DNA from: Balanoglossus misakiensis
Taxonomy: Eukaryota > Animalia > Hemichordata
Assembly: GCA_040954595.2 (NCBI GenBank)
Contig: CM082582.2
Coordinates: 11,089,483 to 11,153,482 of the forward strand
Reading direction: 5' to 3'
Length of the DNA: 64,000 nucleotides
Shown here: in pieces, positions 44,929-54,070 of the stretch
How the letters are laid out: each line of letters begins with the position of its first letter
Position numbering within the stretch: position 1 is the first letter of the stretch
Notes under the pieces: model-generated
The model's database searches: none
What the model was told of the DNA's origin: nothing
The model's input: only the letters and a program-made list of their open reading frames with translations
Made by a program: the position numbers and the translations under genes

Positions 44929-47900
44929 TCAAGCATGCACCCCAGTGCGAACTTCTCCATCCTTGTTTCGAGAACATAAACGGATGACCTCAAAAACGAA
45001 TTCGAAGAACTCGCACACGGTGATAAACGACAGGCCAATGTAGAGTCCCAGCGAGCCACCAATGTCACTGAACAAGCTCTCGAACTGTTGAAGAATCAGA
45101 TTATCAGTTTATTAGCATTCAGGCTGGTGAAGCTAGATCTGAAGAGACATTGTAAGACTGTTTACAACAGTGTTGTATCGACACTGAATTTGTATTTCTT
45201 CAATGGTGTTACACAGTATATATGGGTGAAAAACGTTCAATTTTCTTCTCGGCCACGATATTTTTGTCAGGTAGACCAAGCTTTGATTGACAGAGTAGAC
45301 AGAGAACGTACAGCAAATCATTGTTAGGAATAGGTCGAAATAAATTCATATCTAACCGGACACATTTATAAAGTATGTTCTTACTGGGTAGGATGGTTGT
45401 TCGCTTATCAATTCGTATGACAGTTCGTCAAAGAAGATCTCAAGACTGGCCAGGTTTAACCTGAAATGGACAAATAGGATATTGGTAAACAGAAATGCAC
45501 AAACTTCTGGTCGTTCATGTTCATATGTCCGCATTTGAAATGACTGTTGTTTTCCATGAATATACAACTGCGTTCCCCGTGCAACCTACTTCACACCCTC
45601 CATGTTATTGATGTTACGTGTCTTGGGGTTGGTGGCGTGAATCGCTCGCAGCAAATGGGCCTGGAAGTCGCACAAGAAAAAACGAGAGAAAGTATACTAG
45701 ATTACTCGGTTCGGGATGCGTGGATGAGTCACAAACGAAGATTATATGTATATGCAAAGGAACAACTAATGCAAGAACCGGGGATTGAAAGTGTTATGGA
45801 GCACCTTACCAGGTACACTTCAGATGGCCATATTGATTGGGCTGTATTCAGTGCGAACGTCGTTTCCCTGAGACCAAAAGTGAAAAGGAAATTCTCTGAA
45901 TTGTAGGAGTCGATGCAATCAAGAACATACAAATGCCAAATTCTGAAAACATGCAACCAGGCCGATCTTGGCCATCCTCTCAAATATGTATTTCAGAATG
46001 ACTGCAAATATTGTTGATGTGGGTATGTGCTTACATTTTCGTAAAAAGCGATTGTTTAGGCTTTCTCCAGTCGATTTGTGAGGTCTTTTATTGACTTAAA
46101 CCTTTACACGCAGAGAGGTCAGAGAGGGGGGAGAGAGAGAGAAAAGTCATTTATGGATTTCAGGAGAGACTTACTCGCACTTTTTCTTACATTTACTCTT
46201 GCACGGAAGTGCGTCTGCGCGGTACAAGAAAGAAACAAGTTGCTGACACAGATCTGTAAAAAGGGATCGGAAATGGTAACACATTATTTAAAATAATTCT
46301 GGTTACACTGAATGTTACGAGACAACGAGGAATATAAGATGTCGTTCGCAATAATATCACACATAAGTGAGTAAATCATACGTCAGCTTTCTTTCTTTCT
46401 TTACCTTGAGTTTTGTTGAGTACTGAGCATGGCGGCACAGTATCGATGTTGATCGTCTGCGTACAACCACACCTCTCGGCTATTGTCGACTGAAGGCACA
46501 GATTTCTGCAAGACTAAAATGGGGTTTAAGTCTTGACCGACTGTTCCAAAATCATTGGCAATTCATTTTCTAGTATATGAGAAAAAAATATCCGTCAGAC
46601 ATGAACTTGTGTTTACCTACCTGAACGTCGTACTCATAGCGACTTCCATATAGTGAAACATATGACTCCTTAGATTTGTAACAATCTCCGTAGAGACCAT
46701 CTCGTCTTTTGAATCTTTGCTTTAAATGTAGAGAAGAAATCGCAGGGATAAAATGGAATGTCACACAAGACACAGTCCACAGTCTTCTAATACTGTGGCA
46801 ACTCATTTTATTAGTCTTACAAAAGTAGTGAAAATTGTAATATGCATGTGCGCATACTAGCTACGCGGTAGTTGTGATGGGAACTTGACAAAACGAACCT
46901 CTTCCATTCCTATTGACGTCATGGTACCGGGCGTGATTGTAAAGCCGTCCGTTGAGGGATGTGATGGCACGTTGCTTGGAGTGATGGTGACAACTGCGCC
47001 AACGTTTTGGCCATACAGGCTTATATATTCGGACTGTTCCACGAACAACGTCAGCTTCAACCCTGCAAATAACAGACCATAGAATAGGCTTCATTTTTTT
47101 CTCACACTCTGTCAGTTTGGGATAGACAGTTTGGGATCAATAGAATCTAACACACTAAGGTCCCGGAACAAGTTTTACCACACTCGTCGTGGATATTTTG
47201 TCTAACACTCGCCTGCGGCGCGAGAAACAATGTGTAACATTCTGGTCATTATGCTGCTTATTATGCTTGACGCATGCGCGCTCTCTTTCCGCAATAGATG
47301 AAAAATAATATCTTACCGGACCCAGATCCAGTGTTTGTTGCGGGAAGTAAAGGTTCCCCATAATTAAATTTGAAACAGTTTCCATACTTGTCGTTTGTGT
47401 ACGTATAAAACTGCGTACTGTAAAAAAACAGAATAACCGTAAATTGCCTATGTCATTTTGCTACCTAAGCTGATTTTGGTGTAACAGTTGTTACTCTCTG
47501 TAACTTTTGAGTGTTTTTTTTTTGTGTTCTGCGATGAAATTGGTAAAGTAATGTGTTACCTTTCACACGGGGCTCCATCGTATGAACACTGTAACACAAA
47601 ATCCGTCAACTGGTGTCCATACTTGTTGATGTCTTCTCTGTCCAACTTGAGGACATCTTTCAGATCGCTAAAATCCGGCGTCGATGAAAACGTCATAAAA
47701 CCTAACCAATCGGGCGGAGATTCGCCTTTCACTCGATCAAATCGATGTTCGTGATATTGAAGTTCGCGAAACTCTTCGTACAAGTCGCGGTCACTGTTAA
47801 TATCCAAGAAGTTGTCGTACCAGCCATCTTGAAAAACGTCGAATCGTTGGTACTCTGCAACAACACAAGTGTAAGCTTTGAACAGTCTTTGTGACCGTGA

Positions 47901-53900: not shown

Positions 53901-54070
53901 TTGTTGGCGTCGGTAGAGCGTTGCGGAATCCCTGGCGGCGCATCTGCCGGCTGAGCACCCGTGTGGTTACTTTCAAAGTTAAAACTTGGTGACGGATCGC
54001 CCGGTAGGGAATCTGGGTTTTCCCCGGCCGCCGGTGCAATGCGATCAGCTTGTTTTTCGGTCAGTTCCAT
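44929..54070 (-). CDS. DEG/ENaC (amiloride-sensitive channel family) subunit with LDLa x8 + CUB x3 inserted in the extracellular finger; 26 exons, ~1262 aa
   Basis: Exons: 54070-53708 (TTAHG motif, TM1), 53348-53207 ([10 protein letters not shown]), insert exons 53001-48095, 47854-47560, 47417-47317 (YGNCFKFN), 47062-46899 ([10 protein letters not shown]), 46719-46621, 46513-46405 and 46253-46175 (Cys-rich thumb), 45867-45810 (SIWPS), 45660-45590, 45460-45385, 45084-44929 ([23 protein letters not shown]2, stop TGA). All GT-AG with consistent phases. Confidence 0.88.
48095..53001 (-). other. Module cassette within the channel: LDLa x5 - CUB - CUB - LDLa - CUB - LDLa x2
   Basis: LDLa exons (DC.DGSDE-type motif): 53001-52879, 52771-52649, 52276-52163, 51822-51685, 51392-51264, 49436-49326, 48564-48463, 48217-48095. 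CUB exon pairs (SPNYP/SPGYP/SLNYP, C..D.LQ, GF/GY.L): 50927-50728 + 50594-50414, 50206-50010 + 49876-49696, 49161-48971 + 48842-48680. Confidence 0.88.
51410..51538. repeat. (ATG/CAT)43 trinucleotide microsatellite, intronic
   Basis: Perfect 129-bp run between two LDLa exons. Confidence 0.97.

Follow-up and report, generated by a model that had tools for sequence, protein, structure and literature searches.

DEG/ENaC subunits assemble into trimers, and the channels pass a Na+-preferring, amiloride-sensitive current. The stimuli known for them are protons, bile acids, short peptides, force or proteases; how touch channels are linked to the matrix is still a matter of debate. FaNaC is ligand-gated through the finger, where its peptide acts. 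Protein binding by LDLa and CUB modules is Ca2+-assisted, and both kinds are found in the stem of the matriptase-family type II transmembrane serine proteases. In the alpha, beta, gamma and delta chains of vertebrate ENaC (PDB 6wth; Pfam ASC, PF00858), two transmembrane (TM) helices, an HG motif and a G-x-S filter are combined with a double-cleaved regulatory insert of ~80–90 aa, the GRIP region, which excerpts of PMC8791634 describe as an inhibitory tract of the finger. Neto1/2, SOL-2 and LEV-10 are separate single-pass type I proteins whose CUB and LDLa modules act at ionotropic glutamate receptors (iGluRs) or acetylcholine receptors (AChRs), as outlined in excerpts of PMC9083331.

We analysed a 64,000-nt window of the Balanoglossus misakiensis genome (Hemichordata; GenBank assembly GCA_040954595.2, contig CM082582.2, positions 11,089,483 to 11,153,482 of the forward strand; coordinates below are those of the window) and found on its minus strand, from 55452 to 44929, a gene predicted to comprise 27 exons with GT-AG introns and to encode 1,297 aa without an internal stop. 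The product is a DEG/ENaC subunit whose finger carries eight LDLa and three CUB modules. The reading we favour, with a probability of roughly 0.45, is that of a receptor-gated cation channel opened by an outside macromolecule that binds the array; it draws on the regulatory site that the insert shares with other DEG/ENaCs, a conserved stalk, a cargo of recognition modules, the expansion of paralogs and the kept pore motifs.

The window protein resembles the ENaC subunits in its two TM helices, HG motif, G-x-S filter, predicted fold and finger position of the insert, but the short GRIP tract is replaced by a 690-aa module array, and furin-type sites, which are paired in the GRIP of ENaC alpha and gamma, are absent, as is a PY motif. 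FaNaC (PDB 7yvb, 8on7) and ASIC1/2 share their fold with a model of a close relative, the Ptychodera flava (P. flava) protein P0001 (Z 31.4 and about 30), and the second TM helix (TM2) of the window protein is close to that of ASIC1; however, these channels have compact fingers, small ligands and no folded receptor modules in the finger. In contrast to the Neto, SOL-2 and LEV-10 arrangement, the modules here lie inside the pore-forming subunit, and most relatives carry other cargo. The original prediction had likened the protein to Neto/SOL/LEV-10 and to matriptase, and this likeness held for module content and went no further. The modules sit within the channel chain, flanked by TM1 and TM2, and neither a trypsin-type protease domain, as carried by the matriptase family, nor a SEA domain gave a Pfam match in P0001 or in the 23 scanned exon translations of the window.

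Gene structure and reading frame

Within the interval named in the original prediction, 26 exons from 54070 to 44929 formed one 1,260-aa frame with GT-AG borders at 25/25 introns of 107–372 nt each, and the claim of one continuous frame in one gene was upheld. The gene was incomplete as described, since a first exon had been missed (exon 1, 55452–55373, aa 1–26, with the start ATG at 55452); it has a GT donor, splices in frame into an acceptor at 54101, and its translation is similar to the N-terminus of P0001. An alternative start ATG at 55461 would give 1,300 aa. Exon 2 (54101–53708) encodes the cytoplasmic N-terminus, the HG motif (TTAHG, aa 108) and TM1 (~aa 122–151), as judged by a Pfam match (ASC 1–53, E 9.7e-8), alignment to the N-termini of FaNaC1 and ENaC gamma, and hydropathy. 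Exon 3 (53348–53207; Pfam ASC 64–88, E 3.7e-5) contains FPTVTVCN and the first finger helix and ends in PYY, the insertion point, from which a family-conserved junction leads into LDLa1.

The array corresponds to exons 4–17 (53001–48101; aa 206–895) and was placed within the 798-aa finger, in the order five LDLa, two CUB, one LDLa, one CUB and two LDLa modules. LDLa1 and LDLa2 (exons 4–5, 53001–52879 and 52771–52649; Pfam E 3.5e-8 and 9.9e-9) constitute a position-specific N-side stalk, and LDLa3–5 follow in exons 6–8 (52276–52163, 51822–51685 and 51392–51264; E 2.3e-11, 2e-6 and 2.4e-11). A perfect trinucleotide repeat of 43 copies (51410–51538) occupies the intron separating LDLa4 from LDLa5. 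CUB1 spans exons 9–10 (50927–50728, 50594–50414; Pfam CUB 1–60 and 70–110), CUB2 exons 11–12 (50206–50010, 49876–49696) and CUB3 exons 14–15 (49161–48971, 48842–48680; E 1.5e-6 and 1.8e-3), with LDLa6 (exon 13, 49436–49326; E 6.7e-8) between the last two; LDLa7 and the position-specific C-side LDLa8 are encoded by exons 16–17 (48564–48463, 48217–48101; E 7.9e-9 and 5.7e-9). When single exons were scanned, all eight LDLa exons scored above the curated Pfam cut-off (E 2e-6 to 2e-11) and 5/6 CUB half-exons matched Pfam CUB; the second half of CUB2 was silent alone, yet aligned to CUB2 of P0001 and of a second P. flava protein, P0004. The predicted content of 8 LDLa and 3 CUB modules in ~690 aa was thus confirmed per exon and by alignment to P0001. 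The array contains 11 N-glycosylation sequons. When compared with the Ca2+ signatures of LDLa and CUB, the LDLa acidic cage (CD...DC.D.SDE) ends in DE in 8/8 modules, with both upstream Asp in 4 and Asn or His at one site in 4, and the CUB motif (Tyr-Glu-Asp-Asp) is full in CUB1, partial in CUB3 and less so in CUB2. Phase-1 introns flank every module, which is the pattern expected of exon shuffling and also means that a skip of the whole array (53207 to 47854) would stay in frame and leave 570 aa.

Downstream of the array, exon 18 (47854–47560; 70% and 66% identity to P0001 and P0002) encodes a family-specific finger segment that ends in a DW.GF...S.TPDFSD helix motif and then leads back to the palm. 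The palm, beta-ball and cysteine-rich thumb follow in exons 19–23 (47417–47317, 47062–46899, 46719–46621, 46513–46405 and 46253–46175), where only exon 20 matched Pfam ASC, and the remaining palm, knuckle and last strand in exons 24–26 (45867–45810, 45660–45590 and 45460–45385); both groups were assigned by frame, splice sites and collinearity with P0001, five short channel exons having no Pfam match alone while being collinear with that protein. Exon 27 (45084–44929; Pfam ASC E 3.1e-6; alignment to human ASIC1 TM2, E 1.7e-7) provides TM2 with a Ser at the degenerin site, the GLS filter, a short tail without a PY motif (none in the last 60 aa) and the stop codon. A tblastn search of the rest of the window returned no further channel, LDLa or CUB piece.

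Whether one gene or two nested genes were present was judged by comparison of gene models across species. A query with exon 18 retrieved three P. flava proteins among 21 candidates. P0001 (XP_070576037.1) aligned with the window model in one piece (53% over 1,260 columns), as did P0004 (XP_070565678.1) at 43% over 1,383 columns, and the three CUB domains occur in the same order in all three proteins; P0001 differs from the window protein by an extra LDLa before CUB1 and the lack of LDLa7, and P0004 has 10 LDLa modules. The junction from the first finger helix (PYY) into LDLa1 recurred in hemichordates and echinoderms, and an older P. flava gene set has the identical junction (supplement of PMC10507113). 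Among 46 listed clade members, 45 have the FP motif, and an LDLa followed it in 45/45, in a list chosen as LDLa-clade members; the distance to the first LDLa was 50–70 aa in 42/45. One remote relative combines LDLa, CUB and channel parts in 750 aa; its contig of 2,733 bases leaves no room for many introns, which suggests a transcript. No module exon ends in a stop, and two ATG-initiated peptides that contain a hydrophobic stretch and lie in introns (5 and 8) fall after the start of the array. A separate nested LDLa/CUB gene, named in the original prediction as the alternative, was therefore rejected and appears very unlikely.

The channel body and the insertion site

The channel was predicted to be intact, and its sequence hallmarks were found: the HG motif before TM1, FPTVTVCN after it, the thumb cysteines, and hydrophobic segments only at aa 122–151 and 1258–1280, flanking a large extracellular region in the hydropathy profile. 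The GLS filter aligned with GAS of human ASIC1, and a G-x-S filter together with a small degenerin-site residue was kept in 51/54 family members examined. Matches to the N-terminal exon came from FaNaC and ENaC and not from any ASIC chain, and the His after TM1, which we take to be the proton-sensing residue of ASIC, appears to be absent.

The insertion site was mapped through a sea urchin sister protein, P0054, whose alignment with human ENaC alpha (E 2.9e-52) runs from end to end. Via this alignment, the family insertion site corresponds to ENaC alpha residues ~160–245, the stretch holding the RSRR and RRAR sites, and the DW of exon 18 aligns with the EW of ENaC alpha AVREWYRF. The assignment of the modules to the finger was thereby borne out, and a match of the insertion site to the ENaC GRIP region is supported by these alignments.

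An AlphaFold2 model was available for P0001 residues 103–1299, and not for the window protein (pLDDT 77.6, pTM 0.60); the alignment behind it included 8 short fragments from the window, of which 7 were misplaced, one of these being off-frame as well. The model superimposed on ENaC gamma with Z 32.8 and a root-mean-square deviation (rmsd) of 3.0 over 345 aligned residues (model range 54–1161), and its Foldseek matches included ASIC and FaNaC; an ESM Atlas search with P0001 gave no usable match. The P0001 domain homologous to window CUB1 matched CUB2 of MASP-1 (Z 17.8, rmsd 1.5, 113 aligned). Both channel halves are thus predicted to close into a single ENaC-like body around the insert.

A family with a fixed stalk and exchangeable cargo

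When the C-terminal channel half of P0001 was used as a query (cut-off E 1e-20), 38 long proteins of 721–2,296 aa passed among 2,860 candidates. Fifteen were from P. flava, 10 from S. kowalevskii, 4 from Glandiceps and 3 from Amphiura, with single matches in Patiria, Acanthaster, Anneissia, Branchiostoma and the acoel Symsagittifera. An extra domain family besides the channel was found in 38/38 and LDLa in 36/38. A search for shorter proteins gave 21 matches among 3,348 candidates, several being fragments of the channel family, together with LDLa-free sea urchin channels, and the set was enlarged with the best 150 of 282 representatives (E 1e-30). Two selections of 20 and 46 proteins were scanned with Pfam, and together with the motif positions these scans locate ten kinds of module within the finger: LDLa, CUB, kringle, PAN, F5/8 type C, SRCR, HYR, TSP1, ShK and Link. 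Matches to fn3 sit N-terminal of the channel, and these and the chromo match may be gene-model fusions. Four proteins (P0014, P0025, P0035 and P0093) have 400–630 aa ahead of the FP motif, two of them with fn3 there; these extensions are either fusions of gene models or long cytoplasmic heads. Where paralogs have the same cargo, they sit on contigs of equal size.

A tree was built from 42 chosen rows over 341 core columns. The 15 LDLa channels from hemichordates and echinoderms formed one clade in it (support 99/96), with P0001 and P0004 sister to the window protein (100/99); a FastTree of 171 rows, from which 30/201 proteins with <80% core-profile coverage were left out, agreed. A wider group of 29 rows (94/92, not starred) added amphioxus, acoel, ENA, sea urchin, annelid, nemertean and shrimp channels. 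Frog ENaC alpha, the sole ENaC in the tree and long-branched, lay outside the family without any starred set, and the tree contained no named ASIC. A single clade of the ambulacrarian, acoel and ENA LDLa channels gave p 0.089 in the approximately unbiased (AU) test, which neither rejects nor establishes it. Two gastropod DEG/ENaCs, P0168 (Plakobranchus) and P0173 (Bulinus), have LDLa at the same finger site on a separate branch; a single origin shared with them was rejected (AU p 1.3e-10), and since they cannot join the clade, the insertion likely occurred more than once. Judged by its sequence, the window protein is a true DEG/ENaC member and not ENaC proper.

Window modules were scored against those of clade members, the three CUB-bearing closest relatives being left out. 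LDLa1 scored 113.7 against the relatives' first modules versus 64–67 elsewhere, LDLa2 108.3 against second modules versus 52–60 elsewhere, and LDLa8 74.3 against last modules versus 48–58 elsewhere, whereas the inner modules scored about equally at any position. By these scores the layout is that of a fixed flanking LDLa stalk with exchangeable cargo. The exon 18 finger segment after the insert was the best-conserved part of the family and was retained in LDLa-free relatives. Among paralogs, the F5/8-type cargo matched the fucolectin FBP32 (E 2.5e-48), and 10/12 fucolectin-type proteins keep an H...RxD...R/K fucose-binding pattern, with a spacing of 24–28 that is looser than the published HX24. 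Pattern-keeping paralogs include P0012, P0022, P0023, P0024, P0027, P0031, P0064, P0069 and P0145, and we regard this group as the best candidates for a ligand test.

The family is apparently undescribed. We found no paper describing the ASC+LDLa+CUB architecture in the open-access literature, subscription journals lying outside the search, and no described function for P0001 or P0004 in the literature searched. The available main-text portions of the DEG/ENaC phylogeny papers PMC9822975, PMC10507113, PMC9949801 and PMC9234716 do not mention LDL, kringle or CUB domains, and a term search of PMC10855680 gave no match. Excerpts of PMC10507113 note that ambulacrarians and cephalochordates have uncharacterised channels near ENaC and at other points of its clade B, and its supplements contain a close relative of P0001 with the insert trimmed from the alignment. 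The domain combination is visible in the automatic annotation of public gene models.

In the flanks of the gene, a tandem array of ~535-bp units (38500–44700; 12 copies by an inner 27-mer, 38522 to 44408) begins just beyond the channel stop codon, and the first AATAAA past the stop (44528) lies within the array region. Neighbouring genes encode a vWA-domain protein (1051–1782), a GT2 glycosyltransferase (4039–5610), an LRR protein (22801–23142), COQ9 (30380–30712), a SOCS-family SH2 protein (36279–37685) and a 6-phosphogluconolactonase-like protein (58019–58417). No sign of a functional link between the channel and these neighbours was seen in the window.

Possible modes of gating

In a receptor-gated channel, an external protein or glycan would dock onto the array, and the conserved LDLa modules at its base would pass the signal to the finger and open the pore. 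Such a pore would presumably be shut at rest and prefer Na+, and ligand binding by the array would have to be coupled to gating.

It is also conceivable, though rather unlikely, that the modules cluster, traffic or tune the channel as LEV-10, SOL-2 and Neto do, and that gating falls to an ion, a peptide or a small ligand that acts on the conserved finger segment. Ionotropic receptors are clustered and modulated by CUB/LDLa proteins (excerpts of PMC9083331), and it is the segment after the insert that is best conserved, also in LDLa-free relatives. Most relatives, however, are without a CUB domain, and the exchange of finger cargo across the family speaks for a receptor rather than for a dedicated CUB/LDLa auxiliary. 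Fucolectin, kringle and SRCR domains are not known to serve as channel auxiliaries, which counts further against such a unit.

We consider it unlikely that the array is a tether, fastened to matrix or mucus or to an adjacent cell, and that force on this tether opens the pore. An extracellular tether mechanism has been reported for ENaC (excerpts of PMC6955349), the cargo includes the adhesion or matrix-binding modules HYR, TSP1, Link and PAN, and the 11 sequons of the array are consistent with this role, but so varied a cargo and the expansion of paralogs are easier to reconcile with many ligands than with a single mechanical task.

Quite improbable is a plug that keeps the channel shut until it is excised by proteases like the ENaC GRIP tract, whose position it shares. 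Several LDLa-free sisters have at least two polybasic finger sites, but no R-X-K/R-R site was found in the 798-aa finger of the window protein, 28/40 clade members likewise had none in the finger, and only P0028 had more than one; ENaC activation needs a double cut (excerpts of PMC8791634). Release by furin in the ENaC manner is thus unlikely; of the gating by a protease that the original prediction listed as one option, the furin type was not supported, and a furin-released plug was rejected as the main mechanism for lack of sites, while other proteases might still act. Outside the ambulacrarian LDLa clade, P0075, P0080, P0082, P0097, P0099 and P0112 carry at least two R-X-K/R-R sites within the finger insert; if these inserts are cleaved, ENaC-like double cutting at the GRIP site exists in marine invertebrates too.

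An annotation artefact, with the array in a separate nested gene or always skipped, is highly improbable, for although a skip keeps the frame and all relatives are gene models, the recurrent PYY-to-LDLa1 junction, including that of the older P. flava set, the LDLa after every FP motif in the selected clade list, the lack of stops at module exon ends, the position of the intronic ATG peptides past the array start and the probable transcript of 750 aa argue against it.

Several observations weigh against gating by a ligand bound to the array. Functional, ligand or expression data for any family member were not found in the literature. The Trp of the LDL-receptor ligand pocket occurs only in LDLa5, and the Ca2+ signature is incomplete in CUB2. 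The LDLa-free proteins P0054 and P0055 (sea urchin) and P0178 (annelid) have, at the insertion site, inserts of low complexity that are rich in Ser/Gly or Thr, which implies that the loop tolerates bulk and that coupling of cargo to the gate is not a necessity. Stalk conservation could stem from demands of folding or trafficking, and the higher model confidence there may reflect only alignment depth. Two LDLa-bearing hemichordate members, P0098 and P0119, have a degenerate TM2 with no G-x-S filter and are possibly non-conducting or regulatory subunits.

Returning to the receptor-gated reading, we tentatively propose, with belief falling short of even odds, that these proteins make up an undescribed class of receptor-channels, in which a DEG/ENaC pore bears an LDLa stalk at the GRIP position and exon-shuffled lectin, kringle, SRCR, CUB and other recognition domains, and that would provide acorn worms and their kin with a repertoire of ionotropic receptors whose ligands would be proteins and glycans, sugars on microbial surfaces possibly among them. 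The family also shows the ENaC GRIP site to be an old docking point for regulatory inserts. As the binding unit is exchangeable and part of the pore subunit, one cDNA and a swap of cargo would test whether finger binding or pulling opens a DEG/ENaC pore. If coupling holds, the stalk would be a natural scaffold for engineered ligand-gated channels, and the lectin-bearing members would be candidate ionotropic pattern-recognition receptors.

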